Shown one piece after another: positions 4,509-54,568 of a stretch of DNA of 64,000 nucleotides. The stretch comes from an uncultured Gammaproteobacteria bacterium (GTDB lineage Bacteria > Patescibacteriota > Microgenomatia > Levybacterales > UBA12049): positions 345,377-409,376 of the forward strand of contig CAYYSJ010000001.1 in assembly GCA_964474445.1 (NCBI GenBank), read 5' to 3'. The notes under the pieces were generated by a model. The model was not told where the DNA came from and made no database searches. It saw nothing but the letters and a program-made list of their open reading frames with translations. Both the position numbers and the translations under genes were made by a program. Position 1 is the first letter of the stretch, and every line of letters begins with the position of its first letter.

Positions 4509-5477
4509 TTATTGAATTGTTACATTTTCAGGCTGTTTTTTATCACTCCGATACTTTAAATGGAAATGCATCCTTTCCTCAATAGAACGTGGAGTGTGAG
4601 AAATATTGATAATCAAATCAGCCAAAAACCCAGTAATCAGTACCTGAAGCCCTGCTAGTAACAGCAAAATTCCTAAGAAAAAAAGAGGTCTTGTACCGAT
4701 AGAATGACCACTAAAATGTACCCCTGTTAAGTACAGGAGCACCAAAATACCAAGAGAAAAAAGTATTCCTCCTACCATGCCAAAAAAATGCAGTGGCCTC
4801 TTACTATACTTGGTAATAAAAAGCATAGTCATAATATCAGGCAAATCTTTCCACAGTTTAGAGAACCCATACTTTGATGTGCCATAAAGCCTTTTACTAT
4901 GTTCAACAGCAACCTCAGTTACCGTAAAACCTTGACCATAGGTAAGAAGTGGAATAAACCGGTGCATGCCACCATAAAGCCTTAAGCTTTTTGCCGCATC
5001 AGCAGTGTAAACCTTTAAGCCACAATTATAATCATGTAGATCAAGCCCCCAGAAGAATTTTGCTAACAGATTAAAAAGCTTTGAAGAAAGTACCTTTTTC
5101 AACGGATCTTTTCTGTCTTTTCTCCACCCGGAAACCAATTCATATCCTTCTTGTGCTTTTCTATGTAATTTCTCAATTTCCTCTGGCAAATCCTGTAAAT
5201 CAGCATCCAACGTTACAATATAGTCTCCTTTTGCCATCTGAAATCCAAGCGTCAAGCCTTCAGACTTTCCCTGGTTTTTACGGAAAGAGTAAATTTTTAC
5301 ATGCTTATCTTTTTTCTCAAACTGTTGCAAAAGAGAAAGTGTGTGGTCTGTTGACCCATCGTCAATAAAAATAATTTCATAAGCTTCTTTTAACTTTTCT
5401 GCAACTTTGGTGAGACGGGTATAAAAAGTAGGCAAACTCTCTTCTTCATTATAAGCTGGAATAACAAAACTAATCAT
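4509..5477 (-). CDS. GtrB/CsbB/DPM1-type polyprenyl-phosphate sugar synthase (GT2 with two C-terminal TM helices)
   Basis: The GT-A core motifs are present: SFVIPAYNEEESL, IFIDDGSTDHT, LDADLQDLPEE. Two hydrophobic helices follow (FFGMVGGILFSLGILVLLYL, LFFLGILLLLAGLQVLITGFL), as is typical of the Und-P-sugar synthase family. Confidence 0.8.
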   Translation of the reverse strand: MISFVIPAYNEEESLPTFYTRLTKVAEKLKEAYEIIFIDDGSTDHTLSLLQQFEKKDKHVKIYSFRKNQGKSEGLTLGFQMAKGDYIVTLDADLQDLPEEIEKLHRKAQEGYELVSGWRKDRKDPLKKVLSSKLFNLLAKFFWGLDLHDYNCGLKVYTADAAKSLRLYGGMHRFIPLLTYGQGFTVTEVAVEHSKRLYGTSKYGFSKLWKDLPDIMTMLFITKYSKRPLHFFGMVGGILFSLGILVLLYLTGVHFSGHSIGTRPLFFLGILLLLAGLQVLITGFLADLIINISHTPRSIEERMHFHLKYRSDKKQPENVTIQ

Positions 5478-5597: not shown

Positions 5598-7550
5598 CTA
5601 TAAACCGCTAATTGAAGTAATTGTTGCAGATGTGGAGCCACTATTTGTATTTACACCAACCCAAACAGCAACTCTTGTGTTAGCATTAATACCACTTACT
5701 ACACCATTTTTAAGATCTGAAAAACTATGGTTTTTTCCATCAGAAATAAGATAAAACAGAGAGGATCCAGTAACAACGTCTGTTCCGCTCTGAGAAGTTG
5801 GACCTAGACCATAGGTATCGCCATTTAATCCTGTCATAACGCCATTTGAATTCCATGCAAAAAATTCATTATCATTGTTTACGTCAAACCATAAGTTTAG
5901 TCCAAAGGGACTACCGCTACCATTTACTGTAAAGTTAGGCAAGTTGCCCAACGCTCCTTTATATAAGACAAATCCTGAATCAGCATAGCCAATGGCATTG
6001 TTAACACTAACAGTGACACTCCCATTACTATTTTTTGTTTGTGTAGCAACTCCTGATGAAAAAGGGCTGGTAGACCTAATAAAGTTCGTCCCATCATTAA
6101 TTGTGTAGTAGGTAATTTTATTCTGCAAAAGACTTTGAAAAGGGTAATACGCTGCTAATCCTGACTCTGTACCAATTAATTCTTGATTATAATTAGTACT
6201 AATTTGTGTTCCTGTTCTCACAACATTCCATATTCGTATATCATCCATTTTTGCATCAATAAATCTCATTACTTGGTGGTTAAAATAGAGAGCACCAATA
6301 AGCGGATGTTGCACACTTTCATAGGATAAGGTAATTGGAGCGGTAATCATACCATCAGACGAGCCATCACGGTAGAATTTAACGATTGTCCCATCAAAAG
6401 TAACAGCATAGTGATGCCATGAGCCAGTGGTAGGTGATGTGGTAGCTGCTACATTAATACTGGAACTGGAAGTTTGCACATAAAAACGCATCTTTCCATT
6501 ATCTCCATCATAGAAGACCTCCCACCCTAATCCATTCGTATCACCTAAATTACTTACAAGTGCTGGGTAATTACCAGGCCCAGGCAAACTATTAAACTTA
6601 GCCCAAAATTCAACGGTAATATTTGGCGACGGCTTCCATGCAGAATTGTCTGTTGTATTTAAATATTGGGAAGAAGCGCCTGACAAATTTACAGCTTCTG
6701 ATAAGCCAGTAAAAGGAAAGTCCGTTGTCCACTCTGTTGCTCCATGATTTGTAAGATTATTTCCATTAGTTGATTTATCCCCTAAATCCCACTTGGGTTG
6801 AGGTAAATTTTCAAAAGGATAATATGCTGCTAACCCGTCTTCGGTTCCTGTTAATTCTACACTTTTACTATCATTAATTTGTGCTCCTGTTCTCACAACA
6901 TTCCATATTCGCACATCATCAATCTTTGCATCAATAAATCGAGTTACAGTACCTCCAAAATAAATTGCACCAATAAGTGGGTTTTGCCCGCTTTCATAGG
7001 CCATTGTAATTGGAGCATTAACACTCCCATCAGCAGAACCATCTAGATAGAATTTCACGGTTGTTCCATCAAAAGTAACTGCATAATGATGCCAAACTCC
7101 TGTAGTAACTGTGGTATTTGCGGCAACGTTTATACTAGATCCTAATCGCTGCACATAAAAATGAATCTTTCCATCATCCCCACTATAAAAGTAATCCCAA
7201 CCCAAGCCATTCATTCCACTCAAATTGCTTACTAAAACAGGATAATTACCCGATCCTGGAAGACTGTTAAACTTCGCCCAGAGTTCAATAGTAATATTTG
7301 GTGTTGGTTTCCAGGCAGAGTTATCAGAAACACTTATGTACTGAGACGAAACTGCAGATAAATTAACAGCTTCTGATGAAGTGACAAAAGGAGTATCAGT
7401 TGTGACTTCTGTTGCACCATGATTTGTGAGGTTGTTTCCATTAGGCGATTTATCGCCTAAATCAAACGAAGCAAATACATGAGTCGTGGAGATAGATATA
7501 AAAAGGAAGAGAAAAATAAACGAGGAAAAAATCTGAATAAATTTTTTCAT
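5598..7550 (-). CDS. Secreted protein with two tandem ~225-aa LamG/ConA-like (laminin-G_3 type) jelly-roll domains plus an S/T/G/N-rich C-terminal region
   Basis: A signal peptide is visible (MKKFIQIFSSFIFLFLFISISTTHVFA|S). Each repeat contains WAKFNSLPG...HHYAVTFDG...FY.DGS...FIDAK.DD.RIWN. Many N-x-S/T sequons are present. The gene is flanked by the two largest ordinary intergenic gaps. Confidence 0.65.
   Translation of the reverse strand: MKKFIQIFSSFIFLFLFISISTTHVFASFDLGDKSPNGNNLTNHGATEVTTDTPFVTSSEAVNLSAVSSQYISVSDNSAWKPTPNITIELWAKFNSLPGSGNYPVLVSNLSGMNGLGWDYFYSGDDGKIHFYVQRLGSSINVAANTTVTTGVWHHYAVTFDGTTVKFYLDGSADGSVNAPITMAYESGQNPLIGAIYFGGTVTRFIDAKIDDVRIWNVVRTGAQINDSKSVELTGTEDGLAAYYPFENLPQPKWDLGDKSTNGNNLTNHGATEWTTDFPFTGLSEAVNLSGASSQYLNTTDNSAWKPSPNITVEFWAKFNSLPGPGNYPALVSNLGDTNGLGWEVFYDGDNGKMRFYVQTSSSSINVAATTSPTTGSWHHYAVTFDGTIVKFYRDGSSDGMITAPITLSYESVQHPLIGALYFNHQVMRFIDAKMDDIRIWNVVRTGTQISTNYNQELIGTESGLAAYYPFQSLLQNKITYYTINDGTNFIRSTSPFSSGVATQTKNSNGSVTVSVNNAIGYADSGFVLYKGALGNLPNFTVNGSGSPFGLNLWFDVNNDNEFFAWNSNGVMTGLNGDTYGLGPTSQSGTDVVTGSSLFYLISDGKNHSFSDLKNGVVSGINANTRVAVWVGVNTNSGSTSATITSISGL
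6111..7466 (-). repeat. Intragenic tandem duplication, 2 units of about 675 nt, encoding the two LamG domains
   Basis: The nucleotide repeat is visible directly. For example, cctgttctcacaacattccatattcg occurs at 6211 and at 6886 with similar flanking sequence. The two protein repeat units are visibly similar, with scattered substitutions. Confidence 0.8.
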
Positions 7551-7701: not shown

Positions 7702-8532
7702 TTATTTTTTCCGCATAAATAGTACTGCTAGTGTAAAAACAAGAATTACTAAACTTATCCCACTCACCCATACCCCTTTATCCACCCACTCTTGTGGCTG
7801 ATAATAGACACGAAGAGTATATGATCCATTTTGGGGTAAAACAAAACTATTTAATGATTTTTCAAAAGGTTGGGAAGTAATGAGTATTTTGCCTAGAGAA
7901 GCTTTCCACCCACTATCAAAACTCTCCGCAAAAACTATTCTATCGCCTTTTTGTACATTTTTTACGCTCACGTTATATCTTGTTGGATTAATAAATTTGT
8001 AAGAAAGAGTTAGTTGGCCTTCCATCCAGAAACGACCTTTTGGATTACTTACTTCAAAAACGTGAATTCTCCCAAACCCTGGAATCTCATGTAGCCAGGA
8101 AATTTGTCTTACTGCATCAAGTGTTTTCTGATATGTAAACTCATCATACTTTCTATCTTTCAGGAAAAGTTCTCCTTCACTATCAAAAGGGATTATGACA
8201 TACTTTACACTTCTCTCTTGAAGTAGCTTTTCAGCGCCATCTTTTTCTAGGTTATCCAAAACTCCTGAAATGCTTGAGACATGATAATAGTCCTGTGCTG
8301 GAATAGCAGGATTGTTACTGGTAAAAAAACTAAACCTCTGGAAATTAGGTATCCAAAGACTTCGAGAAAATGAATCATGAGATGAAAGATATCTTTCTAA
8401 TTTTTTATAATCATTTGGTATAGTATGGGGCTTGAAAGTACCTCCCAATTTTCCCATTAAAGCAAAGCGTACAGGCCACAAAAGTAGTATTACAATGCTA
8501 AAAATAAAAATAAAATTAAGTATTTTTTTCAT
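7702..8532 (-). CDS. Membrane-anchored extracytoplasmic domain protein homologous to the C-terminal domain of YfhO-like GT-C proteins; appears to be a separately encoded half of a split GT-C
   Basis: It has an N-terminal signal anchor (FIFIFSIVILLLWPV) and a C-terminal TM (VWVSGISLVILVFTLAVLF). RIVFAESFDSGWKASLGK...YYQPQEW matches LLFISDQFYPGWKAFMDGQ...SYQPTSF of 54770..57139. Start and stop overlap the next gene as ATGA. Confidence 0.6.
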   Translation of the reverse strand: MKKILNFIFIFSIVILLLWPVRFALMGKLGGTFKPHTIPNDYKKLERYLSSHDSFSRSLWIPNFQRFSFFTSNNPAIPAQDYYHVSSISGVLDNLEKDGAEKLLQERSVKYVIIPFDSEGELFLKDRKYDEFTYQKTLDAVRQISWLHEIPGFGRIHVFEVSNPKGRFWMEGQLTLSYKFINPTRYNVSVKNVQKGDRIVFAESFDSGWKASLGKILITSQPFEKSLNSFVLPQNGSYTLRVYYQPQEWVDKGVWVSGISLVILVFTLAVLFMRKK

Positions 8533-9722
8533 TTACTAACCCTTACTTTTATAATTTCATATATTCTGTTAAGACTATATGGGATAAGGACAATATAGCT
8601 AACTGCAACCAACATGTACCATTTTGTCGGATCCCGAAACATAATAAATCCTGGAACATGATCAAACATCCAAAGGTATAGTCCACCGAATGGATCATTT
8701 GCTCCTTTTGCTAAAAAAACACCCATAAGTCCTACCAACACAAAACACAAGATATATATTCGTTCCTTTTTTTCCCTGAGCAAACGGAGTGAATCGTAGG
8801 GTTTAAGAAATAGCAATGAACCAAAAGCAAGAAGTGGATACACTAGGAATTCGGGTCTCATAAAATTTACCTTCCCAAAGATATTTTCTGGCCAATTCGG
8901 ATGCAATAGTCCTAATGCATTCTCAAAAAATGCAAAACTAAAAAATTTTACAGCTCCTACTCCTGTATAAACTTCTCCAAATTGACTCATGGCAGACCCG
9001 CGACTAAACAGAAGAGGTAATATCCAAAATGCATGCAGGCCAAGAGTGAAAAGGGCAGGAACACCAACGGTGTAAAAAAATCTTTTAATTAACTTATTCC
9101 CTGGAAAGTAATAAAGAAAATAGAAAAATGTTATGATGGCAAGTATTGGGAGACTTACATACACTATTCTAAAATCAAAGAGAATCAAGATACTCAAACT
9201 ATATGTAAATAAAAGTGATAAAAAGAATGAATCAGAATTTTCTAAAAGGTTTAAATATGTTAATACAAGAAATGGAAGACAAGAATAAGCTAAGGCAACA
9301 CCATTTTGCCCTCCTCCAATAAGCATTAATGCATATGTGTTTGTCGTATATAGAAAGCTTCCAATGAGTGCGAAAGAAGAGTTGCCAACTATTTTTTTTG
9401 TTAATAAATATGCTGATGTTAGAGAGAGTACAAGAAAAGGGAAAAACCAAAATATTCTTTCATACATTTTCCAATCTATTCCCTGCGCTAATTTCATCGT
9501 TCCTACAAAATATACCTCAAGAGGTAACTTAATAACTTTATTATTGCCTACTCCAGAATACCTATCGTCCCATGAAGTAAGCAATGTTGTGTTTTTCACC
9601 ATAGTAGACGAGTAGTATGTCCAATCACCACCCGTTAATAACTCTCCTCCCAACCAATTCCTAAAGATAAAAATAACAGCCAATACAAAAATGACAAATG
9701 AAAACGCAAAGATTTTTTTCAT
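8529..9722 (-). CDS. YfhO-like GT-C membrane module (397 aa, multi-TM) lacking the usual C-terminal soluble domain
   Basis: It has about 10 hydrophobic helices and a first-loop GGDWTYY motif like the other YfhO-like paralogs. It ends right after the TM region. Stop TGA is at 8529-8531, overlapping the ATG of 7702..8532. Confidence 0.6.
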   Translation of the reverse strand: MKKIFAFSFVIFVLAVIFIFRNWLGGELLTGGDWTYYSSTMVKNTTLLTSWDDRYSGVGNNKVIKLPLEVYFVGTMKLAQGIDWKMYERIFWFFPFLVLSLTSAYLLTKKIVGNSSFALIGSFLYTTNTYALMLIGGGQNGVALAYSCLPFLVLTYLNLLENSDSFFLSLLFTYSLSILILFDFRIVYVSLPILAIITFFYFLYYFPGNKLIKRFFYTVGVPALFTLGLHAFWILPLLFSRGSAMSQFGEVYTGVGAVKFFSFAFFENALGLLHPNWPENIFGKVNFMRPEFLVYPLLAFGSLLFLKPYDSLRLLREKKERIYILCFVLVGLMGVFLAKGANDPFGGLYLWMFDHVPGFIMFRDPTKWYMLVAVSYIVLIPYSLNRIYEIIKVRVSK

Positions 9723-9725: not shown

Positions 9726-10766
9726 TTATTTGTCAAACCCTCTTACAGCATATACTTGATTGATGATTTTTGAATAGCCCTCTATTTTCCCTCGCCCTTT
9801 GACATTTTCTATGTAGATTTTTCTAACAAAATCAAGGACAAATCTTGGAATAATAAATGCAGACAATAGGAATAACCAATATTTTATAGAAAATGTATAA
9901 GATGAATTCAATTCTCTAATCCTCTTTGCGTATTTTAAAAGGTTTGAATTATTTGAGTTATATTTGATAATTGCTAGAAAACTGACATTAATGGCCAATT
10001 GTCGATTAAGCGTTTTTTTATAATACTCCTCCCCTGCTACGACTCGAATTGCATTATATAACTCTTCCCATGCTATTTTTCCTTTTTTGACGTAATAGCC
10101 TGGATGCTTTTGCTGATGGGACCAGGATGCAATAATAGAATACTTTTGCTGGAAAAATCCTCCATATTTTTGAATATTTGAGTAGCACATGTCAAACCAT
10201 GGGATAAGCTCAGAGTCAAGGATAGTAATTTTTTTAGGGTGTATGTTTTTAAAAATAATTCCAGTTATAAAATACAAATCAATTTTTTCAATATACCCAA
10301 CTATTTCTGCAGGTGTAGCACCTGCTTTTAATTGCAAATCTGCTCTCAGAAATTTATTTCTCACATAATCAAAAACATCCTTTTTATCAAATGTCTGGTA
10401 AACATAATTAAGTCTTATTAAACCATAGTGGTGTTTTGCGATTAAATTATATACACCTTCCAAAACATCATCATAGAGAAGATAATCATCATCCCCATGT
10501 ATAAAAACATATTCACCTTTAGCATAAGACAAAACATTACCAATATTTTTCACTGCACCTAAATTCTTTGGATTTTTATAATACCTAACTCTTTTATCTT
10601 TATATGCTTTTACTCTTTTAGCAGTGTCATCTGTGGAATTATCATCACAAATAATAATTTCAAAATCTTTAAAGGTTTGTGCTAATAAACGTTTTATAGC
10701 AAAATCTACTTCTTCCGATCTATTGTATGTAGCGATTGGAATGGAAAAAAATGGACGTTTCTTCAT
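9726..10766 (-). CDS. GT2 glycosyltransferase
   Basis: Motifs seen: FSIPIATYNRSEEV, IICDDNSTDDT, VFIHGDDDYL. Confidence 0.75.
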   Translation of the reverse strand: MKKRPFFSIPIATYNRSEEVDFAIKRLLAQTFKDFEIIICDDNSTDDTAKRVKAYKDKRVRYYKNPKNLGAVKNIGNVLSYAKGEYVFIHGDDDYLLYDDVLEGVYNLIAKHHYGLIRLNYVYQTFDKKDVFDYVRNKFLRADLQLKAGATPAEIVGYIEKIDLYFITGIIFKNIHPKKITILDSELIPWFDMCYSNIQKYGGFFQQKYSIIASWSHQQKHPGYYVKKGKIAWEELYNAIRVVAGEEYYKKTLNRQLAINVSFLAIIKYNSNNSNLLKYAKRIRELNSSYTFSIKYWLFLLSAFIIPRFVLDFVRKIYIENVKGRGKIEGYSKIINQVYAVRGFDK

Positions 10767-12813: not shown

Positions 12814-13830
12814 CTATGTATTTTTTGTGAAATTCCACTTTGCACTATTATACTGTACTTCTTTTTGCCACTGGATTGTTGCTCTCAAACCTTGTTCTAG
12901 AGTAAAGAGAGGCTTCCACCTCAGTTTTTTTTTAATGTTTTCGTTATTACCATACCAATCTTCCAAATCCCAATTTCTATTTTTCATCCCTCCAAATGTA
13001 GGAGAAATTTTCATTTTTACTATTTTCTTTACCAGTAAAGCAAGCTGCCGTATAGTCGTTTTTTTGCCAGTTGCAACATTAAATACTTCACCATAAAGCA
13101 GAGGAGACATGCATACTGCCGCATAAATAAATGCAGATACAATATCATCTACATAAATAAAGTCTCTTGAAATTGAAGGATCTACAAAATGAGGAAATTC
13201 TCCATGTCGCGCCTTTTCTAAAAGGGTAGGAATGAGTCTGTCTTGCTCCTCCCAAGGACCAAAAGCTGAATAAAGTCGCAAATGTATAACAGGCATCTTT
13301 TCAACTTTTCCGTAATATTTTAAAGTGAAGTAGTTTGATACTTTTGAAACTGCATAATGACTATTTGGACTTAGCTCCCCATCTTCTTTTGGAGCCGATG
13401 AGTTAAGTCCATATTCTGACTGTGATCCAGCATGGATATATGCTGCAATTTTTTTATCCCTCAGTGTCTCAAGAAGCTGAATTGTTGAAAAGACATTTGT
13501 CTCATAAATCTTTTTAACCTCTTGCTGTTTGGAATAAGCACCATAAGCTGCTAAATTAAATACGGTTTTTGGCTTTATCTTCTTGATTACTTTCTCCAAC
13601 TGTTCATTATTGGTAAGATCGCAGTCTAGAAAATGTTTGCGAGGAATTTTTGCTGCTATAAAGCGCCAGTTATGCATGCTGTCATGAGAAACTCCATAAA
13701 CATCTTTTCTGAAAAGGAGAATTTTTTGAATAAGATTTACTCCAATAAATCCTCCAGCACCAAAAATCAGTATCGGACCTTGTACTTTTTTTATTTGCGT
13801 TTTCAAGTCTTTTTTTATTGCCATCTTCAT
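12814..13830 (-). CDS. NAD-dependent sugar epimerase/dehydratase (extended SDR)
   Basis: Motifs seen: IFGAGGFIG, catalytic YAVSK, and serine AGSQSEYG. Confidence 0.75.
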   Translation of the reverse strand: MKMAIKKDLKTQIKKVQGPILIFGAGGFIGVNLIQKILLFRKDVYGVSHDSMHNWRFIAAKIPRKHFLDCDLTNNEQLEKVIKKIKPKTVFNLAAYGAYSKQQEVKKIYETNVFSTIQLLETLRDKKIAAYIHAGSQSEYGLNSSAPKEDGELSPNSHYAVSKVSNYFTLKYYGKVEKMPVIHLRLYSAFGPWEEQDRLIPTLLEKARHGEFPHFVDPSISRDFIYVDDIVSAFIYAAVCMSPLLYGEVFNVATGKKTTIRQLALLVKKIVKMKISPTFGGMKNRNWDLEDWYGNNENIKKKLRWKPLFTLEQGLRATIQWQKEVQYNSAKWNFTKNT

Positions 13831-14729
13831 AGAAGTCTTTTAATATTTTTCAATATACCCTCTGGATCCAATTCATTTTCTTTCTGATGGAAAGCGTGGT
13901 TTCCGTAAAGGTGAGAAAGATAACCTTTTGCAAAAAGATGCACAAAATTTCCGGAAGACAGATTTCTTTTTCCTAAAATAGAGAATAGCTTTTCTCCAAG
14001 TCCACCTACTCCCGAATGTTCCTCAACAACAAGTAACTTTTGAGTCTTGCGAATAGAAACAAATATTTCATCTGACAACTCGGTTGGTAATTCTGTTATA
14101 ACAAAAAGATCTATAACGTTTTCTTCTTTCAACTGATCAATTGCCTGCAGAACATTGTGAATAAGTGGTCCTAAAACAACAAGAGTTATTTTTTCTCCAT
14201 TTTTAATATGCCGAATTGGTGCATATGGAGGAAGCTGTATAGTTGTTTGAGGAGCTAAATTGAGACGAAGATACGAAGGTGCATTATTTTTATAGATTTT
14301 CTCCACAACAAAAGGCATATCCTCGACAAAAGCAGGAATATAAAGTTGCATATTGGGAAAAGATGAGTAAATTGCCACATCTTCCAACAGATGATGAGAT
14401 TCTCCCATAATGCCATACCCATAGCCACCACCAAACCCAGCTAGTTTTACTGGAAGATTGAGGTGGCATACATCATTCCTTACTTGTTCAACGGTCTTAA
14501 GAGTTAAAAATGTTGAGATACTATATACCCAAGGTTTAAGTCCTACATAGCAAAGGCCTGCAGCTACTGAAATCATATTTTGTTCAGCAACACCAGCATT
14601 GATAAAGCGTTCTCCGATACCATATCTTATCCCTTCAAATGCATTAAACCCTAAATCACCTGTGAGAAAGAAAATTTTTTTATCTTTTTTAGCGATTTTT
14701 TCCAGCTCTGTGATAAATTCTTTTTTCAT
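13827..14729 (-). CDS. Transketolase C-terminal section (Pyr and C-terminal domains of a split transketolase)
   Basis: ERFINAGVAEQNMISVAAGL matches the transketolase pyrimidine-binding motif. Length is 300 aa. It has a 4-nt overlap with the downstream epimerase. Confidence 0.8.
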   Translation of the reverse strand: MKKEFITELEKIAKKDKKIFFLTGDLGFNAFEGIRYGIGERFINAGVAEQNMISVAAGLCYVGLKPWVYSISTFLTLKTVEQVRNDVCHLNLPVKLAGFGGGYGYGIMGESHHLLEDVAIYSSFPNMQLYIPAFVEDMPFVVEKIYKNNAPSYLRLNLAPQTTIQLPPYAPIRHIKNGEKITLVVLGPLIHNVLQAIDQLKEENVIDLFVITELPTELSDEIFVSIRKTQKLLVVEEHSGVGGLGEKLFSILGKRNLSSGNFVHLFAKGYLSHLYGNHAFHQKENELDPEGILKNIKRLL

Positions 14730-14732
14730 ACG

Positions 14733-15548
14733 TCATTGTACCTTCCTATCAATTGATAAAAGTGCTTTTTTGTACAGATCATCTGTAAGAGTATGATAAT
14801 GCCAACCAATTTGGTTTTCCATAAATGTTACGCCATGACCTTTGATAGTATCAAAAATAATTACTTTGGGTTTGTTTCCTTTTAATTTCCCTACTTTCTT
14901 GAATACCTTTTCTATATGAACAGGATTATGACCATCAGCAGTAAAGACTTCAAAACCAAATGCCTCCCATTTTTCAGGAGTTGTTGATTTTCCTAGTACT
15001 TCTGCTGTCTTTCCAAATGCCTGAATCTTATTGTTATCTACTAGTACTACTAAATTTTTTAACTTTTTGGCTGTGGCATATTGGGCTGCTTCCCATACTT
15101 GACCTTCATTACATTCGCCATCAGACATCAAACAATAGACCATTGCTGGCTTTTTTGATTTTCGTAAATAAAGGTACGCTTGTGCCATTCCTGAAGCTAT
15201 TGATAATCCATGTCCTAAACTACCTGATGGGAAAGGAATGAATTCATCTAAGTCAGCAGCAGGATGAGCTGGTAATTTTGTTCCATTAGTATGAAAAGTC
15301 TGTAAATCTTTATCAGATAACCTGCCAATAGCATTCAAAACAACATACAGTGCAGGAACAGCATGACCTTTTGAGAGAATGAACTTATCATTTTTTTTAA
15401 TAACAGAAGAAAATAGCACTCTTAAGATGTCCAAGCAGGACAATGAACTTCCAATATGGCCCGCATGAGCATTATACAAGAGAGTAAGCAGATTTTTATG
15501 CAAAATATTTCTATTGAGTTTTTTTCGGATAGATATAGCTTTGGCCAT
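14733..15548 (-). CDS. Transketolase N-terminal section (TPP-binding domain of a split transketolase)
   Basis: Motifs seen: GHIGSSLSCLDIL, GSLGHGLSIASGMA and the TPP motif MSDGECNEGQVWEAAQYA. The track start is TTG at 15569. I prefer the ATG at 15548 (MAKAISIRKK). Confidence 0.8.
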   Translation of the reverse strand: MAKAISIRKKLNRNILHKNLLTLLYNAHAGHIGSSLSCLDILRVLFSSVIKKNDKFILSKGHAVPALYVVLNAIGRLSDKDLQTFHTNGTKLPAHPAADLDEFIPFPSGSLGHGLSIASGMAQAYLYLRKSKKPAMVYCLMSDGECNEGQVWEAAQYATAKKLKNLVVLVDNNKIQAFGKTAEVLGKSTTPEKWEAFGFEVFTADGHNPVHIEKVFKKVGKLKGNKPKVIIFDTIKGHGVTFMENQIGWHYHTLTDDLYKKALLSIDRKVQ

Positions 15549-15671
15549 TTGTTGCTCAATTATACACAAAAAATTATCCTTGTATACACCTAAGAATTAT
15601 CAGTTCTATCAGATTTCTTCATTATTGCAAAAACTATTGCTAATTGAGAAAATCATTGATGGTAAAATCAT

Positions 15672-16376
15672 ATGAGAAAAACTTTTTCCGTTATACTTCC
15701 CGTATACCATCAGTCCAACCAAATTGCACTTATTATTAAAAACTATACACATGGATTAACAAAATTAAAAAAGCCATTTGAGCTTCTGCTTGTTATCAAT
15801 GGAAATGACACTGCATCCTATAAAGAGGCAGTAAGGCTGGCAAGAAATAATTCCTCTATCCGGGTTATTTTCATAAAAGAATCTGGGTGGGGAAACGCCG
15901 TTTTGGTAGGATTGCAAAAAGCACAAGGCAAACTTATTTGTTATACCAATTCCGCACGTACACAGATTGACGATCTACTTGCAATGCTACGCTTTGCAGA
16001 CAAAAACCCTTCTATTGTTATTAAAGCAACAAGAATGCTTCACGTCAGTCCACTTAGAAAAATTGGCTCAACGCTTTACAATATAGAATGCCGACTTCTT
16101 CTGCATACTCCTGTGTGGGATGTCAATGGAACTCCGAAAGTTATTCCATATATGGTTACAAAAAAAATAAATCTTCAATCAAAGGATGACCTTATTGATG
16201 CAGAGCTTGTCGCAAAATGCATTGCCCTGCATATACCTATATTAGAAGTTCCAATTCTTTTTCCTCCTCGCTTTGGGGGCAAAAGTACAACAAATTATTT
16301 TTCTGCAATAAAGATGTATCTAGGGGTATTACGAATTCGAAAAATGGTGAGAAATATATTTCTTCATCAAGGGTAA
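15672..16376 (+). CDS. GT2 glycosyltransferase (one of three plus-strand genes in the glycan locus)
   Basis: FSVILPVYHQSNQIA is a GT-A N-terminal signature. Length is 234 aa. It is divergent from the transketolase operon. Its 3' end overlaps the convergent 16329..18302 gene by 48 nt. Confidence 0.65.
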   Translation: MRKTFSVILPVYHQSNQIALIIKNYTHGLTKLKKPFELLLVINGNDTASYKEAVRLARNNSSIRVIFIKESGWGNAVLVGLQKAQGKLICYTNSARTQIDDLLAMLRFADKNPSIVIKATRMLHVSPLRKIGSTLYNIECRLLLHTPVWDVNGTPKVIPYMVTKKINLQSKDDLIDAELVAKCIALHIPILEVPILFPPRFGGKSTTNYFSAIKMYLGVLRIRKMVRNIFLHQG

Positions 16377-18302
16377 CAAAAGAAGCATTCCCCATATAAT
16401 AAATGAGATAAAGGAAATAAGAAGCCCAATGCGAAAGGTACGTGAAGCATAAGAGAAGACATATGTATGATTTCCTTCGAGTGTTTGTACCTCTAGAAAA
16501 CGATGAGACAAAAGCTGTTGGTTTTTACCATCTATCCAAACATTCCATCCAGGATAATTCATTTGAGCAAGGGAAAGAATTTGTTTACTTTGTGCATTTG
16601 TCTTAATTCGAAAGGTATTAACACCAACATCCACATGTTGTGCTTGTGTACTTCCCTTTCCATCATATAACACAGCGAAGGGTCTTCCGGTTGATAATTC
16701 ATATACCGATGTGTCATCTTTTTGATACACTTTTTTTGCAGTCTCAGGGATATTATTGATTTGATTATGGGGAGTAATAAAATACCCCGGCTGAATGTCT
16801 TGGTAATTTGCAGCATAATCATATGGAGAGGGTCTTTTAACAAAGGCAAATGCTAAAGCAGGGCTATTTTTTAAAACAAAACCATAATTCGTATTTAACA
16901 ATCTTTGATTATGGTAATAAATAACGTCCTCAGGTACTTCATTAATCCAATTTTCCGCTAACACATAGTAGTTTTGTGTATTGTGTTTTTCAATCCAAGA
17001 AAAAATATCGTTGTATAAAGAATAATTTGCAGGGAACACACTATATGCAACAAGAGACGGATTAATAAGCATAGTTTCAAAGAAAAAAATTGTACAAAAG
17101 AGATTTAAAACAAGCATTGGAAAAACAAAGATACGGTATTTTTTACTTCTTAGAAGATATTCAGAAAAAAGGCCAAAAATCACCAAGATGATAACAACAA
17201 AATATGCATATGCTCTGCTCGGTACTCTAAAATATTGTAGTGAGGGTATAAAGGTTATTAACCAATGATAAGGGTTTACTAATAAAGCTGGCATAAGCAT
17301 AAGAAAGAAAGTGCAAAAAAGAAGTACCAGAAATATTTTTGACGGAATGTTTATCTTTTTATATTCCTTTATCATCCAAACAATTCCGATGAAGGGGAAA
17401 ATACCGATGAACGCTGTTTTCTCAAGATCTCCCCAAGCTGTTGAAATAAAAGAAGACAAATACGTAAGTTGAAATGGTTTATCAAATGGTATAAAAAGAT
17501 ATCGTATCATGCTTATAATTGTTTGACTTCCCTCAAACGGTTCTTTAGACTTCCCCAAGTACGTTTGCAACTCAACTATTGGTAATATTTTAACTGCAGA
17601 AAATAGCCCCATTAAGACAGCGGTGACAAAGAAATAAAAGAATACTTTTTTTTCTTTGAAAAAGAAATAACAGGCTAGTACAGAAAGTGAAAGCATTCCA
17701 TACATAACAAAATAAATACTTCCTGCTGACAAAACATAGAAAAAAGAAAGCGCTGCAATACCGGCCCAAAGAACGTTTTTCTTTCTACCTACTTGCATCA
17801 GAGAAAATATAACAAATGGAAGAATGCCATAAGGGACAACAGACTCAATGTGGCCTGCTGTAATTCGAGCAGCAGGATACCCACATACTGCATACGTGAG
17901 GGCAATAAAGAAAGCGATTGCCTCTGAAGAAACAAAAGACTTTGCCAAAAGGTACATAGTCTCGCATGCAAGAAATAATGAAAGGACATAAATTAGTTTT
18001 ATTGCACCATCATAGGATGGCATAATAATAAGAGGAATACTCATTACTGGGTTATATGCACTATACATAGGATCAGCTATCAAAGGCAACCCTTCTTGTA
18101 TGGTAGGATTCCATTGAGGAAACGTATGACTATGCACTATTGCATCACGAAAGTATAATTCCTGAAGATCCGTACCATTAAGATCGTTGGCATGGACAAC
18201 ATGATTATCTAGAATTACTGGAAGTAAAATTAATAAGCTAAAAATGAGGAATATACCATGAAAAAAAAGTTTATTAGAAAAGAGGATAAGCAATTTATTC
18301 AT
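16329..18302 (-). CDS. YfhO-like GT-C membrane protein with extracytoplasmic C-terminal domain and C-terminal TM anchor
   Basis: Length is 657 aa, with about 12 TM helices. First-loop motifs are GTDLQELYFRD and FPQWNPT...G.P. The C-terminal anchor is FRIGLLISFISFIIWGMLLLL. Confidence 0.6.
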   Translation of the reverse strand: MNKLLILFSNKLFFHGIFLIFSLLILLPVILDNHVVHANDLNGTDLQELYFRDAIVHSHTFPQWNPTIQEGLPLIADPMYSAYNPVMSIPLIIMPSYDGAIKLIYVLSLFLACETMYLLAKSFVSSEAIAFFIALTYAVCGYPAARITAGHIESVVPYGILPFVIFSLMQVGRKKNVLWAGIAALSFFYVLSAGSIYFVMYGMLSLSVLACYFFFKEKKVFFYFFVTAVLMGLFSAVKILPIVELQTYLGKSKEPFEGSQTIISMIRYLFIPFDKPFQLTYLSSFISTAWGDLEKTAFIGIFPFIGIVWMIKEYKKINIPSKIFLVLLFCTFFLMLMPALLVNPYHWLITFIPSLQYFRVPSRAYAYFVVIILVIFGLFSEYLLRSKKYRIFVFPMLVLNLFCTIFFFETMLINPSLVAYSVFPANYSLYNDIFSWIEKHNTQNYYVLAENWINEVPEDVIYYHNQRLLNTNYGFVLKNSPALAFAFVKRPSPYDYAANYQDIQPGYFITPHNQINNIPETAKKVYQKDDTSVYELSTGRPFAVLYDGKGSTQAQHVDVGVNTFRIKTNAQSKQILSLAQMNYPGWNVWIDGKNQQLLSHRFLEVQTLEGNHTYVFSYASRTFRIGLLISFISFIIWGMLLLLPLMKKYISHHFSNS

Positions 18303-19348
18303 ACCATTTTTTGTCTTTTAGCAAAAATAAAATGCAAAAGTATTTGAAAAACAGCTATAACTAAAGTGTAATATCCCCACATTGCTAACTTATTTTCCTG
18401 TGGTAATAGATAAATAATTCCACAAAACTCTGCAAGTAATAAAAAGATAATTGAAAACAGTAATGAGTATGTGTAAGGTAATTTTGAACGTACAATAAAG
18501 ATAATGAGAATTCCAAGAATTCCTAATGTGATTCCATAAAAAATATCATTTAAAAAAACGACATCAGCAATGATTAATAGAAAAGGAGCAATAACTTTTT
18601 TTGACAAAAGGAAAAGGAATATATTTGAAAATGGTAAAGGTGCTATTTCATGAGCTATAGTATTTGAAACAGTGAATACTAACAAAAAATATAAATAAAA
18701 AAACAATGGCAATAAATACAATGATGAAACAAGGAGCATATGAGTACTTGAAAATAACTCAATTACCTTTTCATACAGTAAGGAAAAAAGATATAGTTTT
18801 TTATGGTAAAGTTCTTTAAATGAATATATATATCGTGTAATAAAAGCATTATCTTTTTTTAAAAAAAATACAGCATTTGTCTTATCTCCATCTAGAGAAA
18901 GTACTTCAAACTGATATGTTTTACCAAGGGCTGATGTTATTTTAGGGAAACCAAAAACAAGAAAATTATTTTCTTTTATAGCATCTATCGTATACGTGTG
19001 TTGATAATATGGAACTTGTGCATTTTTCTCTTTGAGAGTAAATTGAATTTTATGTGCTTTATCTGGTTGTACAGAAAGTGTATTACTGACTTGTATTGCA
19101 ATAATACCTAAATTATGTTCTTTCACCCTAAACTCACCTATTAAACTTTCCCCTTGCATTAATAAATTATTTTTAGGCATATGCGTGTATTGATGAAAAC
19201 TATGGAAGTAAAGAAATGTCGTAAAACTTTCATGAGGATTGAATAGAATTGAGGCAATAATCCAGAAAAATAGCAAAAATAATGGAATAATTACCCAAAG
19301 TATTAAAAATTTAAAGCTGATTAAAGTTTGTAATGTTTTTTGTTTCAT
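18299..19348 (-). CDS. Hypothetical membrane protein (N-terminal TM, ~170-aa extracytoplasmic domain, ~6 C-terminal TM)
   Basis: There are no recognisable motifs. It is co-operonic, with 4-nt overlaps, between two YfhO-like genes. Confidence 0.5.
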   Translation of the reverse strand: MKQKTLQTLISFKFLILWVIIPLFLLFFWIIASILFNPHESFTTFLYFHSFHQYTHMPKNNLLMQGESLIGEFRVKEHNLGIIAIQVSNTLSVQPDKAHKIQFTLKEKNAQVPYYQHTYTIDAIKENNFLVFGFPKITSALGKTYQFEVLSLDGDKTNAVFFLKKDNAFITRYIYSFKELYHKKLYLFSLLYEKVIELFSSTHMLLVSSLYLLPLFFYLYFLLVFTVSNTIAHEIAPLPFSNIFLFLLSKKVIAPFLLIIADVVFLNDIFYGITLGILGILIIFIVRSKLPYTYSLLFSIIFLLLAEFCGIIYLLPQENKLAMWGYYTLVIAVFQILLHFIFAKRQKMV

Positions 19349-21651
19349 GTCTTATGTCTCCTTACAATAAACATGCTTATTATGAGTCCTATAAAAGAGA
19401 AAATACTTATCAAAATCCCCAAGTAAAAGTTTAATTGAGGAGTAAAATAAATCGTTAGCAATACATCTATTGATCCATTAGTGTTTACTTTATAAAATGA
19501 TGCATCGTATTGTTTTCGGATAATATTTGGATTAATGATCCATTCATTACTATAGTTTGAATTATGATGATGGATATTATTAAAATTAGCGGTTCTTAAA
19601 AAATAACTTAATTCATCCCCCTCATAAAGAGTGTCTTTGGGTGCGCATTCAATTACATTATCACTCCTCTTTATCCCGTTTTGACATTGTAGTGCTGCAT
19701 TATATTTTTCTATAAAAACTTTCCATCCATTATGATATGATTCTAAAAATTGTAATTTCTCTGGAAATTGAAGGTTTTTTATATAAACTCTATACTTAGT
19801 AGGATTAATTCTTTGAAAAAAACCCTCAGGTATTTGTATCGCTGTATTAGTCTTTTTCATTGTATAGAGTTCAAAATTATCATTTTTACTGACCAAAACC
19901 TTTTGATCTGTAAGGTTATTAATCATAGTCTGATCTTGATTTTGCAATCTAGATCCACCAAAAAAAAGATAAGAGTGTTTTACTTCATTTGGGATGTTTT
20001 TTGTAAATATAATAGCCCCTACATTATATGTGTAAAGCATATTACTTAATTTTTCATAATCACTATTTGCAATATATTGCCACATTTTTCCTGACTCTGA
20101 AGGAGGAAACGATAGTTCACCAGAAAAATCATTTATACCAGTAAAAAATTTGAAAGGAGAAGTTCCCGCGAATATGTTATTACTATTATCTTCTTTTATA
20201 ATCGCATAACCTGCAATATTAAGAGGAACATTCAGGATATTTGTTGTTGGGTCGATCGTTTGTTTTACTTTGGAAATAAAATCAAGATACTCCTGGGAAA
20301 TATTTACATTCTTATGTATTGATTTTGTTGTCCAAAGAGGAGCATTGATAATTTGTTCTATTGGGAGCGTATTTGTTACAATCACTAGAAAGGTAATTCC
20401 TGTAATTAAAAATTTTAGAGGAGAAAATTGTTTATTTACGATAATAAGTGAAAGAGTAAAAAAAACTGCATAAATAAATACATATCCAGGAGCAAATTTG
20501 TCATAAAAATTTCTGAACATAAAAAATCCAGGAAGATGTCCTAACATAAGAAATACTTCCTTAAGAGGACCTATATTTACAGTAAAGAAGAATAGAGATA
20601 AAATAAATGCAACTAAAAAGAATAAATATATACGCTTTTCAGTACTGTTAAGTTTCTTTTCCCAGTAAATAATTCCACCAAAGACAACTGCCACAAATAT
20701 GGTATTAAGGAAAAATGTTTTATCATAAAAACTCAAAAATATATTTCTTAATGGCCACTGATAATCAAATGTTAATTGTCTATGAGGTAGATTTAGAAGT
20801 GGATATAAAATATTACCTGTAGCAGTTTGGATAACAGTTGTGCGAAAAGTACTCGCAATATTAAAAAGATCTCCAAGATTGTTCCCGCCTTTAATAAGGA
20901 ATGTTGTCAAAAAAGGTAAAATCCAAAATGCTTGAGAAACTAAAAGGAAACTAAAAAATAGAATAGCTCGTTTTGCAAAGATAGTTATTATCCTACGTGG
21001 GAAAATAAAGGTCCCAACAAATAAAGTAAGAACTAAAGGAATGAATAATCCTAATATCCACGGGATACTATAAAGGCCTAGAGAAAGAAAAATACTCATT
21101 GTCATTGCATATACAATATATTTCCATTGATTGGTTTTTACGAATTTAATAAATGTCCAAAACAGGAAAGGGATAAGTGGAATAAGCCAAGCAGACATAA
21201 GAAATACAGAGAGTTGATTGACTATCATAATAGGAGAAAAAATATAGAAGAGAGCTCCTACATAGGGTTCTATATAGTTTGGTTTACTAACTAATTCTGA
21301 TATAAGTCTTTTGAAATAAATAAAACCGAGAATAAGAGGTAAAGAGAATGCCAAATAATCTACAACAATCCTTGATTTCAGTAACCAAAAGATAAATGAC
21401 CATATGGCAACAAATGGAAAAGAGTAGTGATTGGGATTAAAATATCCTATTGAAGAGATCGTGGTCCATGAAAAAAAAGACATTGACTTAAAATATTCAA
21501 TTGGATAAGCATATAGTAACCTAGTATCATCACCTCCTACGAATAATTTCCCATTAAATAAGTAGTAAGGAAGTGCAAAAAGCAGGACAATAGTAACCAG
21601 ATCTATAATAAGCTCGTAGTATTTTAGGAAAAGCTGTTTCAATGCAAACAT
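19345..21651 (-). CDS. Large YfhO-like GT-C membrane protein (about 768 aa from the preferred start)
   Basis: The first loop reads FVGGDDTRLLYAYPIEYF. There are many TM helices, then a long soluble domain and a C-terminal TM (FYLGILISIFSFIGLIISMFIV). The track start at 21780 would overlap the divergent gene at 21713. I prefer the internal ATG at 21651 (MFALKQLF...). Confidence 0.6.
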   Translation of the reverse strand: MFALKQLFLKYYELIIDLVTIVLLFALPYYLFNGKLFVGGDDTRLLYAYPIEYFKSMSFFSWTTISSIGYFNPNHYSFPFVAIWSFIFWLLKSRIVVDYLAFSLPLILGFIYFKRLISELVSKPNYIEPYVGALFYIFSPIMIVNQLSVFLMSAWLIPLIPFLFWTFIKFVKTNQWKYIVYAMTMSIFLSLGLYSIPWILGLFIPLVLTLFVGTFIFPRRIITIFAKRAILFFSFLLVSQAFWILPFLTTFLIKGGNNLGDLFNIASTFRTTVIQTATGNILYPLLNLPHRQLTFDYQWPLRNIFLSFYDKTFFLNTIFVAVVFGGIIYWEKKLNSTEKRIYLFFLVAFILSLFFFTVNIGPLKEVFLMLGHLPGFFMFRNFYDKFAPGYVFIYAVFFTLSLIIVNKQFSPLKFLITGITFLVIVTNTLPIEQIINAPLWTTKSIHKNVNISQEYLDFISKVKQTIDPTTNILNVPLNIAGYAIIKEDNSNNIFAGTSPFKFFTGINDFSGELSFPPSESGKMWQYIANSDYEKLSNMLYTYNVGAIIFTKNIPNEVKHSYLFFGGSRLQNQDQTMINNLTDQKVLVSKNDNFELYTMKKTNTAIQIPEGFFQRINPTKYRVYIKNLQFPEKLQFLESYHNGWKVFIEKYNAALQCQNGIKRSDNVIECAPKDTLYEGDELSYFLRTANFNNIHHHNSNYSNEWIINPNIIRKQYDASFYKVNTNGSIDVLLTIYFTPQLNFYLGILISIFSFIGLIISMFIVRRHKT

Positions 21652-21712
21652 ATAAACTTTTCTTATTGTAACAAATATAATTGTATGGTAAAGTGGTAAT
21701 CTATAAGATCGA

Positions 21713-43152: not shown

Positions 43153-43155
43153 ATC

Positions 43156-46454: not shown

Positions 46455-46486
46455 ATAGTATAAAACAAGGAGGAAAATATATAGGA

Positions 46487-47740: not shown

Positions 47741-47741
47741 A

Positions 47742-54562: not shown

Positions 54563-54568
54563 TGATGT

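Follow-up and report, generated by a model that had tools for sequence, protein, structure and literature searches.

Adjacent, overlapping genes that probably encode the two halves of an AftD-like GT-C glycosyltransferase in CPR bacteria

Introduction

Glycosyltransferases of the GT-C superfamily include OST, PMT, ArnT, Emb/Aft and YfhO. To our knowledge, each GT-C enzyme described so far is one polypeptide, its membrane core covalently joined to an extracytoplasmic domain, and AftD is not known to be encoded in two pieces, nor did a literature search return any report of this. In OSTs, for example, the transmembrane (TM) core and the C-terminal domain, which bears the WWDYG motif, belong to one polypeptide.

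AftD is a single chain, on average about 1,380 amino acids long, in which a periplasmic region separates N- and C-terminal TM regions, with TM helices 13-16 forming an ACP-binding four-helix bundle (bioRxiv 10.1101/2019.12.22.885152). In YfhO-type systems, which combine a CsbB/GtrB-type GT2, a GtrA/GtcA or Wzx flippase and a GT-C protein, the GT2 synthesizes a polyprenyl-P-sugar in the cytoplasm, and the GT-C protein transfers the sugar outside the cell (PMC8035078, PMC5836110). YfhO proteins are described as single chains, splits are unmentioned in the GT-C literature that we searched, and a search for split GT-C enzymes, or for the CPR family described below, returned nothing relevant.

Here, we report a computational analysis of two overlapping open reading frames, ORF1 and ORF2, in a 64,000-nucleotide stretch of genomic DNA (hereafter, the window). 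We consider it quite probable that the two are halves of one AftD-like CPR GT-C membrane glycosyltransferase, encoded by a split gene and reassembling in the membrane.

Results

Architecture of the two gene products

The two ORFs (Table 1) overlap as ATGA, as the initial annotation had described, and the strings that it quoted are all present: GGDWTYY in ORF1, FAESFDSGWKA and YYQPQEW in ORF2, and SDQFYPGWKAF and SYQPTSF in the product of 54770..57139; so is the T-run at the junction. ORF1 is predicted to encode the N-terminal membrane (catalytic) module of a GT-C enzyme, comprising about TM1-TM10. GGDWTYY spans its residues 31-37, and G32-D33 (codons 9629-9624), located in the first extracytoplasmic loop after TM1, is invariant across 38 aligned family members; LLHPNWPEN and LAKGANDPFG...FRDPTKWY are further conserved outer loops. 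ORF2 encodes the C-terminal module and, as also stated initially, starts with an anchor of its own, an MKK start followed by a hydrophobic helix at residues 7-25, within a TM segment assigned to residues 2-25. About residues 26-244 are predicted to form an extracytoplasmic alpha/beta domain and a beta-sandwich, and a second TM helix at the C-terminal end (residues 245-275) is followed by RKK, with both termini (MKK... and ...RKK) predicted to be cytoplasmic.

Together, ORF1 and ORF2 are colinear with, and complete over, the fused homolog P0002 (683 aa), which is 67% identical to ORF1 and 55-58% identical to ORF2. On the AF2 model of P0002 (pLDDT 95, pTM 0.94), the split point falls in loop 394-404, between helices 364-393 and 405-420, and the counterparts of the two ORF2 TM helices are confidently placed against the core. 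The break sits at a domain boundary, within a short linker on the cytoplasmic side that joins TM10 to TM11. The polytopic membrane core can be superimposed on solved GT-C enzymes, and ORF1 carries a conserved acidic residue in the extracytoplasmic loop that follows TM1, both of them marks of the GT-C superfamily; ORF1 and ORF2 belong to this superfamily of glycosyltransferases.

Table 1. Features of the ORF1/ORF2 locus and related genes in the window
Feature	Coordinates	Strand	Size	Remarks
ORF1	8529..9722	minus	397 aa	
ORF2	7702..8532	minus	276 aa	
ATGA stop/start overlap	8529..8532	minus	4 nt	ORF2 ATG 8532-8530, ORF1 TGA 8531-8529
SD-like AAGGG	8540..8544	minus		within ORF1 3' end, 7 nt upstream of ORF2 ATG
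A7 run (7-nt T-run on plus strand)	8523..8529	minus	7 nt	Lys-Lys codons 2-3 of ORF2, plus the first base of codon 4
AAA, last sense codon of ORF1 (Lys397)	8532..8534	minus		from frame analysis
Upstream GT2 glycosyltransferase	9726..10766	minus		stop codon 3 nt before ORF1 ATG
ArnC/GtrB/PgfS-like GT2 (polyprenyl-phosphate sugar synthase type)	4509..5477	minus	322 aa	NF007986, E 1.7e-51, residues 2-294 of 322
Distant fused paralog of the ORF1+ORF2 family	19345..21780	minus	811 aa	single chain

Family assignment

ORF1 and ORF2 belong to an unnamed family, mainly confined to the CPR groups Levybacteria and Gottesmanbacteria, in which a single chain of about 680 aa is typical. The nearest solved structure is mycobacterial AftD (PDB 6W98, 6WBX). 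Like AftD, the family combines an N-terminal GT-C TM region, an outer (in AftD, periplasmic) domain and a C-terminal TM region; however, AftD has a much longer periplasmic region and a four-helix bundle, whereas the family members, at about 680 aa, have an outer domain of about 225 aa and one C-terminal TM helix. Sequence identity between AftD and the family is 11-15%. Neither window ORF matched PF11847 (GT-C_AftD, DUF3367); 2 of the 38 family members match it weakly (best E 3.2e-6), and a few database hits bear a precomputed PF11847 label. STT3, AglB and PglB (GT66) are about 8-12% identical to the family, which differs from them in having an additional C-terminal TM anchor.

Other database searches were little help in naming the family. 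A Pfam search with ORF1 and ORF2 yielded no match reaching any threshold, the sole result from the NCBIfam collection was a partial match to the MmpA model at 30 bits (cut-off 210 bits), which is unusable for naming, and a profile search of PDB sequences did not find AftD, its sole match being triosephosphate isomerase (E 1), a chance hit.

The initial annotation had labeled the pair YfhO-like, and this label is not supported. Neither ORF matched PF09586 (YfhO) at E up to 1 or reached its gathering score of 28.5 bits, and just one of the 38 family members matches it, weakly (E 8e-5); the window paralogs 54770..57139 and 51208..53454 do match PF09586, at 72-75 bits. Homology of the family to bona fide YfhO over the full length was not found when the family profile was compared by hhalign with the window YfhO paralog 54770..57139 (probability 10%, 103 columns). 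The proposed alignment of the ORF2 C-terminal region with 54770..57139, for which BLASTP gave no better than E 0.2, reduces to motif resemblance, namely, a short colinear C-terminal motif common to both (x-GWKA ... Y-x-P ... TM). Nor is that protein the appropriate fused paralog for comparison; the supported one is the 811-aa single chain (Table 1), which hhalign matches to the family with a probability of 98.6% and E 7e-16 over 603 aligned columns spanning both modules.

The junction

The ATGA overlap is likely to be the site of translational coupling from ORF1 to ORF2. Overlaps of this 4-nt type are a common operon feature and are unremarkable by themselves. The SD-like site of the window, AAGGG, is weak, and its equivalents in split relatives are GGAAGGG (L002), AAGGAGGG (L003) and AAGGAG (L015 and L086); an SD-like sequence precedes the ORF2 ATG in five of the eight split junctions examined, and among these eight a convincing one was not found in lineages L011, L044 and L082. 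The motif (K/Q)(R/E)(R/K)-x-x forms the C-terminal end of ORF1 in 12 of 19 complete split tails, and in L003, L015 and L086 its residues are encoded by AAGGAG(G).

The initial annotation had named, as a finding that would speak against a split, an indel in the T-run that restores a single 670-aa ORF. Such a restoration is impossible by frame. On the coding strand, the run is an A7 tract, the first A of which doubles as the last base of the ORF1 TGA; since the tract lies downstream of this stop, and since TAG TAA stands just before the ATG in the ORF2 frame, an indel in it cannot fuse the ORFs. Relative to ORF1, ORF2 reads in the -1 frame, and the only indel that gives an in-frame fusion (...VSK-MKKILN..., 673 aa) is one extra base (+1) within the AAA codon at 8532-8534. 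The A7 tract itself is identical in four independent sequences, and the frame logic, together with the independent assemblies described below, rules out that an indel in the T-run caused the split.

Distribution and phylogeny of split and fused forms

Among the 120 best ORF1 homologs, 21 are of ORF1 size (380-411 aa); 2 of these are incomplete gene calls, and the other 19 terminate in that same linker, stopping a few residues past the last helix of the N-terminal module. Homologs of ORF2 are numerous, with 1,515 cluster representatives found at an E-value of 1e-3 or lower. Among the top 150 cluster representatives that match ORF2, roughly 15% are separate proteins that begin with a Met-Lys-TM segment of their own. 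The standalone ORF2 homologs sit on the same contigs as the ORF1-sized homologs and, in all seven split loci examined, ORF2 lies directly downstream of ORF1, either overlapping it or separated by 1 nt. The geometry of the split varies: a 4-nt overlap, with the same ATGA as in the window, occurs in L003, L015 and L086, the overlap is 11 nt in L082 and 17 nt in L044, and L011 has a 1-nt gap (TAGtATG).

Fused forms predominate. They account for 75 of the 80 species-representative loci from GTDB, against 4 split loci and 1 of undetermined state, and for about 80-95% of the family. The suggestion that orthologs might be uniformly fused holds for the closest syntenic one, P0002, which is encoded by a single 683-aa ORF at locus L001, and fails for the family, which has many split members; the split architecture persists among lineages just 40-60% identical to one another.

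Neighbor-joining trees were built from about 380 trimmed columns of the N-terminal module and 256 columns of the C-terminal module; support for the backbone is low. The window ORF1 groups with fused P0002 in the N-module tree (bootstrap 100%); P0002 is likewise the partner of the window ORF2, together with the closely related P0122, in the C-module tree (87%). Elsewhere, split P0010 pairs with fused P0019 (100%), and split P0012, P0031, P0032 and P0042 pair with fused P0011 and P0014 (100%). As these trees have it, the split forms are polyphyletic; we estimate at least five to six independent fission or fusion events and infer the direction of change. Recombination between the ORF1 and ORF2 lineages was considered and is not claimed: both modules place the window with P0002, and the deeper nodes are unsupported. 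The identity of ORF2 to some split ORF2s is 58-60%, close to that for the C-terminal half of P0002.

The pair formed by P0019 and P0010 illustrates a transition. Fused P0019 (L087) reads AGA TTA ATG AAA at the junction, and its split sister P0010 (L086) reads AGATGAAAA; the two differ by a 4-nt indel, with P0019 retaining in-frame Leu-Met-Lys. Split and fused states can therefore interconvert by small indels.

Genomic neighborhood

Given the 3-nt spacing between its stop codon and the ORF1 ATG, the upstream GT2 gene probably belongs to the same operon as ORF1, and it is conserved in the same position at the fused locus L001. At L001, a GT2 gene encoding a protein of the same size as the ArnC/GtrB/PgfS-like GT2 of the window (322 aa) directly follows the GT-C gene; by its family assignment, the window GT2 is a candidate maker of a lipid-linked donor. 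No flippase gene was identified near the ORF1/ORF2 pair. By analogy, and with an ArnC/PgfS-like GT2 at the locus, the general logic is likely to be the same as in YfhO systems.

Alternative explanations of the split

The pair could have parted functionally, with ORF1 serving as a sufficient minimal GT-C enzyme and ORF2 as a separate membrane-anchored glycan-binding or scaffolding protein. The window holds several GT-C-like proteins of about 550 aa that apparently have no large C-terminal domain, so that GT-C cores can exist without such a domain, and ORF2 on its own folds confidently in AF2. Nevertheless, in the seven split loci, ORF2 never occurs away from ORF1 and is always tightly coupled to it, both modules retain residues conserved in the fused enzymes, and the ORF2 TM helices correspond to helices that are confidently set against the core in the fused model. 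We regard such a division of labor as improbable.

Considerably less probable still is recoding, whereby a -1 shift at AAA-TGA, or stop bypass, in some ribosomes would yield a full-length fusion as the active form. The frames permit it: ORF2 is in the -1 frame, the last sense codon AAA is followed by the stop and an A-rich run, and after a -1 slip the ribosome would read ATG next. However, a canonical slippery heptamer is absent at the junction, where a -1 slip would re-pair from AAA to UAA, and the differing geometries of the other split lineages imply that there is no conserved recoding site. Moreover, like the standalone homologs, ORF2 begins at an ATG of its own, behind an SD-like site, and its product starts with Met-Lys-Lys.

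An equally slim chance attaches to a recent frameshift pseudogene, that is, a gene broken by mutation with one or both halves decaying. Such an origin would fit the single-ORF state of the closest syntenic ortholog and the prevalence of fused members, as well as the non-conservative replacement, by N74 of ORF2, of a His (H474 in P0002) conserved in at least 85% of fused homologs. Yet the junction is identical in the window, in assemblies L084 and L085 (different sequencing runs) and in the divergent strain L002, the ORF2 product of which is 81% identical to that of the window, with many substitutions around the shared junction. Over 276 aligned codons, comparison of the two ORF2 genes gives dN/dS of 0.25 and dS of 0.38, with no stops and no indels. 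By these measures, the split predates the divergence of the window lineage from L002, and ORF2 has been under purifying selection since. Of the positions that at least 85% of fused homologs share, ORF1 keeps 83/84 (fused proteins average 95%) and ORF2 keeps 36/40 (average 93%), within the range of the fused proteins, and the split lineages that are 40-60% identical always have both halves intact and adjacent. The pseudogene reading is largely refuted, and the initial preference for a genuine split is borne out.

The notion that a homopolymer miscall created an apparent stop in what is truly one ORF deserves next to no credence: a single extra A in the AAA codon, next to the A7 run, would indeed produce the fusion, but three assemblies from different runs and a strain with many nearby substitutions agree on the junction, the run that matters is just 3 nt long, indels in the A7 run cannot join the frames, and independent lineages show the same ATGA split.

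Both halves are intact, adjacent and conserved in diverged lineages, with purifying selection after the split, as befits a functional split gene. Because several bacterial lineages keep the split under selection, the pair appears to be a working two-piece enzyme, presumably reassembled, and not a damaged gene or the product of faulty sequencing.

Discussion

In the two-piece enzyme that we favor, an ancestral single gene for a protein of about 680 aa would have come apart at the short cytoplasmic linker that joins TM10 to TM11. ORF1 would retain the catalytic membrane core with the invariant Gly-Asp of the first loop, and ORF2 would retain TM11, the extracytoplasmic alpha/beta and beta-sandwich domain and the C-terminal TM helix. 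The two genes would be co-transcribed with the upstream GT2, and translation of ORF2 may be coupled to that of ORF1 through the placement of its ATG on the TGA and the SD-like site in the ORF1 3' end. The two polypeptides would then reassemble in the membrane into the architecture of the fused enzyme, an interface suggested by the pTM of the fused model: TM11 and TM12 would pack against the core, and the outer domain would cap the active-site loops. The assembled enzyme may take its sugar from a polyprenyl-phosphate-sugar donor, of which the nearby ArnC/GtrB-like GT2 is the probable source, and pass it to an acceptor at the cell surface. Split and fused states would interconvert by small (3n+1) indels at the linker, with both states tolerated, which would explain the patchy phylogenetic distribution of the split forms. 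A stronger version, in which the linker between the core and the TM-anchored outer domain is an evolutionary toggle that (3n+1) indels switch between fully active one-chain and two-chain enzymes, is one that we advance tentatively and consider rather doubtful.

The window also contains a two-gene transketolase, encoded as N- and C-terminal halves, which resembles the ORF1/ORF2 pair in its inter-domain break, the adjacency of the halves on the same strand and the existence of both fused and split relatives. In contrast to ordinary fission at a domain boundary, the ORF1/ORF2 break separates two TM helices of a polytopic membrane enzyme, the parts of which must therefore reassemble inside the membrane; another difference is that, within the family, breakage or rejoining at one and the same linker has happened several times. 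The conceptual surprise is moderate, since gene fission at domain boundaries is a well-known evolutionary event.

The conserved split is a natural experiment, which indicates that the outer domain and two TM helices of such an enzyme can come as a separate subunit, presumably assembling with the core. It also marks the exact linker that tolerates cutting, which is useful for expression, engineering and structural dissection of such difficult membrane enzymes. The surface-glycan biology of CPR bacteria is almost unknown, and the analysis defines a sizeable, previously unannotated AftD-like GT-C family in Microgenomates (CPR). In such genomes, 'hypothetical proteins' of about 400 aa and about 280 aa are halves of one enzyme and should be annotated jointly. 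If the linker does act as a toggle, this would be the first documented GT-C enzyme with an extracytoplasmic domain working in trans, and cores and outer (acceptor-recognition) modules could possibly be swapped between paralogs, which would diversify surface glycans.

Results

Structure of the ORF1/ORF2 junction

ORF1, the N-terminal membrane module, and ORF2, the TM-anchored outer-domain module, overlap as ATGA at 8529-8532, the junction reading ...GTT AGT AAA TGA in the ORF1 frame and ATG AAA AAA ATA... in the ORF2 frame. The ORF1 product spans the membrane several times, and GGDWTYY lies in the loop that follows its first helix; that of ORF2 starts with MKK and a hydrophobic helix, and its C-terminus consists of another TM helix followed by RKK. 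All strings quoted in the initial annotation were found, including those in the YfhO paralog encoded by 54770..57139, as was the T-run (+ strand; A7 coding) at 8523-8529. That annotation further proposed, as a refutation test, that an indel in this run might restore a single ORF. Frame logic makes this impossible: the ORF1 TGA (8531-8529) lies upstream of the A7 run, only its last base being common to both, and TAG TAA directly precedes the ATG in the ORF2 frame, so that no indel in the run can yield one ORF and such a test could never succeed. For a single-base change to join the ORFs, one extra nucleotide (+1) must be inserted in the AAA at 8532-8534; the product would be ...VSK-MKKILN... 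(673 aa).

Coordinates of the split gene pair and of neighbouring genes in the window
Feature	Position	Strand	Length	Content
ORF1	9722..8529	-	397 aa	
ORF2	8532..7702	-	276 aa	
GT2 gene preceding ORF1	9726..10766			
ArnC/PgfS-like GT2	4509..5477			
Secreted protein	5598..7550	-	650 aa	two Laminin_G_3 (concanavalin-like) repeats, C-terminal domain
Transketolase, two genes	within 13827..15569	-	278 and 300 aa	N-terminal and C-terminal parts
Fused paralog of the ORF1/ORF2 family	19345..21780	-	811 aa	
Large ORFs	16329..18302, 23901..25592, 47742..49253	-		putative GT-C-like proteins; no Pfam match
Four tandem proteins	39839..46454	-	~550 aa	two scanned
Two YfhO proteins	within 51208..57139	-	748 and 789 aa	PF09586
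Membrane protein	61812..63542	-	576 aa	PTPS_related-like
Short ORF	63532..63906	-	124 aa	YfhO C-terminal match

The split is conserved and under selection

Two more assemblies, L084 and L085, which come from different runs, contain the exact 397-aa ORF1 and the same junction, and L002, a locus from another sample, carries the same AGTAAATGAAAAAAATA despite many substitutions flanking the junction, its ORF2 being only 81% identical to that of the window. This recurrence rules out a sequencing or assembly artefact. Comparison of the two ORF2 sequences gave a dS of 0.38 and a dN/dS of 0.25 over 276 codons, with zero stops or indels. Among positions at least 85% conserved in fused homologs, ORF1 keeps 83 of 84 and ORF2 36 of 40; the fused proteins themselves retain, on average, 95% and 93% of these positions, respectively. 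A fresh frameshift that left a decaying pseudogene is thus very unlikely, and selection on ORF2, the kept residues and the recurrence of the junction back the earlier preference for a functional split. Together the two genes represent a GT-C enzyme in divided form, conserved and under selection, with the cut in a linker between helices that is predicted to be cytoplasmic.

Fused and split forms among homologs

Searching a large protein database with ORF1 yielded 912 homologs; among the best 120, 99 are 592-695 aa long and 21 are 380-411 aa long. In nineteen of these 21, the protein stops a few residues past the last N-module helix, in the same linker; the remaining two are truncated calls. The ORF2 search retrieved mostly 276-308-aa proteins, on contigs that also carry short ORF1 homologs. 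An exhaustive search of representatives with ORF2 gave 1,515 matches at E 1e-3 or better, and standalone ORF2-type proteins with their own Met-Lys-TM start account for about 15% of the best 150. The 80 GTDB species-representative loci comprise 75 fused and 4 split genes, plus 1 interrupted by a contig end. The N-half of the closest homolog, P0002 (683 aa), shares 67% identity with ORF1, and the C-half 55-57% with ORF2. The P0002 locus, L001, shares with the window the order transketolase N, transketolase C, epimerase, sulfotransferase, APH-type kinase, GT2 and GT-C, and is, judging by this synteny, the fused ortholog locus. The comparison of orthologs suggested in the initial annotation accordingly cuts both ways: the split recurs elsewhere, but the syntenic ortholog and most species-representative loci are fused.

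By record titles, the family spans Levybacteria, Gottesmanbacteria and other Patescibacteria. Many family-bearing contigs (L006-L083) are titled 'uncultured Gammaproteobacteria bacterium', and others Eisenbacteria, Sulfotelmatobacter or Limnocylindrales; for a Levybacteria/Gottesmanbacteria-type gene, such titles suggest that CPR bins or contigs have been given the wrong taxonomy in public records.

ORF2 lies directly 3' of ORF1 in all seven split loci in which both genes are readable: ATGA overlaps in the window, L003, L015 and L086, a 1-nt gap (TAGtATG) in L011, a 17-nt overlap in L044 and an 11-nt overlap in L082. On paper, -1 slippage at AAA-TGA could produce a fused protein by recoding, but a canonical slippery site is absent and the junctions of the other split lineages are incompatible with slippage.

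NJ trees with 100 bootstraps were built separately for the N-module and the C-module. Window ORF1 grouped with fused P0002 (100%), and in the C-module tree window ORF2 and its close relative P0122 joined P0002 at 87%. Split P0010 paired with fused P0019, and split P0012, P0031, P0032 and P0042 with fused P0011 and P0014 (both 100%); six split proteins formed one clade (90%). Together with junction geometries that differ between lineages, these groupings suggest several independent split/fused transitions, by our estimate at least 5-6, NJ being a simple method and the backbone poorly supported. The P0010 locus reads AGATGAAAA and that of its fused sister P0019 AGA TTA ATG AAA, a 4-nt difference, the fused gene keeping in-frame Leu-Met-Lys; in this pair, the two states appear to be easily interconverted. 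Aligned by eye, the window ORF2 N-terminus MKKILNF... matches the linker motif ...KSKIFNLQN... of P0002 and many other fused proteins, as might be expected from fission inside an ancestral linker.

Other architectures were also observed. L021 and L026 contain ~1,050-aa ORFs with about 350 extra residues past the C-terminal TM helix, and P0171 (1,052 aa) and P0247 (1,541 aa) have large N-terminal extensions before the ORF2-like module, so the family also fuses with other modules. P0137 (431 aa) begins within the N-module (MFWILPILISRINP...) despite its long, 49.7-kb contig, and in several species-representative loci (L049, L078, L053 and L070, with fused ORFs of 569-603 aa) the C-module ends after about 150 residues; P0137 and the shortened C-modules could reflect other break points, frameshifts or gene-call artefacts.

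Fold and family assignment

No Pfam model was matched by ORF1 or ORF2. Across 38 family members, PF11847 (GT-C_AftD) matched weakly in two, DUF6541 in two and YfhO in one, and the family sequence profile found no solved structure. With the genuine YfhO paralog of the window, this profile gave no match (probability 10%); its match to the 811-aa paralog runs end to end (probability 98.6%, E 7e-16). The label 'YfhO-like' used initially is therefore unsupported, and 'AftD-like GT-C of an unnamed family' is a better description.

The AF2 model of P0002, from a 140-sequence alignment, had a pLDDT of 95 and a pTM of 0.94. The break site maps to loop 394-404, between helices 364-393 and 405-420, which is predicted to be cytoplasmic by helix counting and K/R content. 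Modelled alone, ORF2 (pLDDT 96.4) comprises, in order, a TM helix, an alpha/beta domain, a beta-sandwich and a TM helix. Invariant residues include G32-D33, located in the first outer loop where the GT-C catalytic acid is expected, as well as D183/R185, H274-P275-W277, K339 and R363-D364. ORF1 residues 323-385 and P0002 residues 313-445 weakly match NCBIfam NF053599, 'MmpA family trehalose lipid delivery protein' (30-35 bits versus a cut-off of 210); the matched part covers the conserved outer loop LAKGANDPFG...FRDPTKWY, which hints at a loop motif common to this family and a mycobacterial envelope protein family.

Possibly, the two products function independently. Against this stand their strict adjacency in 7 of 7 loci, the retention of residues conserved in fused enzymes and, in the predicted fused structure, the confident placement of the helices that correspond to those of ORF2.

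Genomic neighbourhood and proposed pathway

The preceding GT2 gene stops 3 nt short of ORF1, so that GT2, ORF1 and ORF2 probably form one operon. ORF2 would be translated through termination-reinitiation coupling at the ATGA, aided by AAGGG 7 nt upstream. In L003, L015 and L086, the SD-type sites at the same place are stronger, AAGGAG(G), and the (K/Q)(R/E)(R/K) tails found repeatedly in split ORF1s seem to be what a site of this type encodes. The ORF2 product would be inserted with both ends cytoplasmic and docked on ORF1 as in the fused model, and the enzyme would use a polyprenyl-phosphate-linked sugar to glycosylate an acceptor outside the cytoplasm. The donor is likely to be made by the ArnC/PgfS-like GT2 (E 1.7e-51 over the full length); no gene for a flippase was found close to the pair. 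The proposed pathway is similar to the multi-component transmembrane glycosylation systems that PMC8035078 reviews.

The secreted protein gene sits between the split GT-C and the ArnC-like GT2. L001 has no counterpart, and a same-sized GT2 gene (322 aa) lies directly 3' of its GT-C gene. L002 has the same ~150-nt spacer followed by a downstream gene and thus probably shares the insertion. Transketolase is encoded by two genes in the window, as in L001, a known form of this enzyme; the pair lies inside the glycan cluster with the epimerase, sulfotransferase and APH-type kinase, a grouping that suggests an unusual modified sugar.

GT-C-like membrane proteins are unusually numerous in the window (16329..21780, 23901..25592, 39839..49253, 51208..57139 and 61812..63542, all on the - strand), all within one long same-strand glycan-biosynthesis cluster. 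Of the two scanned ~550-aa tandem proteins, one matched PTPS_related, YfhO-N and PMT_2, and the other PMT_2. For the 124-aa ORF, the match to Pfam YfhO is confined to the far C-terminal end of the profile (positions 757-824 of 835, E 2.9e-6, under the gathering score). This ORF overlaps by 11 nt the start of the 576-aa membrane protein gene and could be the end of a YfhO-like gene, broken or running beyond the window edge, or a second split GT-C.

Discussion

Prokaryotic genes are commonly split at domain boundaries, as the two-gene transketolase of the same operon illustrates. Our literature search, the coverage of which was incomplete, found neither a natural GT-C enzyme whose core and outer domain are encoded as separate polypeptides nor a report on this CPR GT-C family, which amounts to absence of evidence only. 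The natural split of this polytopic glycosyltransferase is real, and fission or fusion is recurrent at one linker. Conceptually, a split GT-C is not disruptive; its use lies in annotation and protein engineering.
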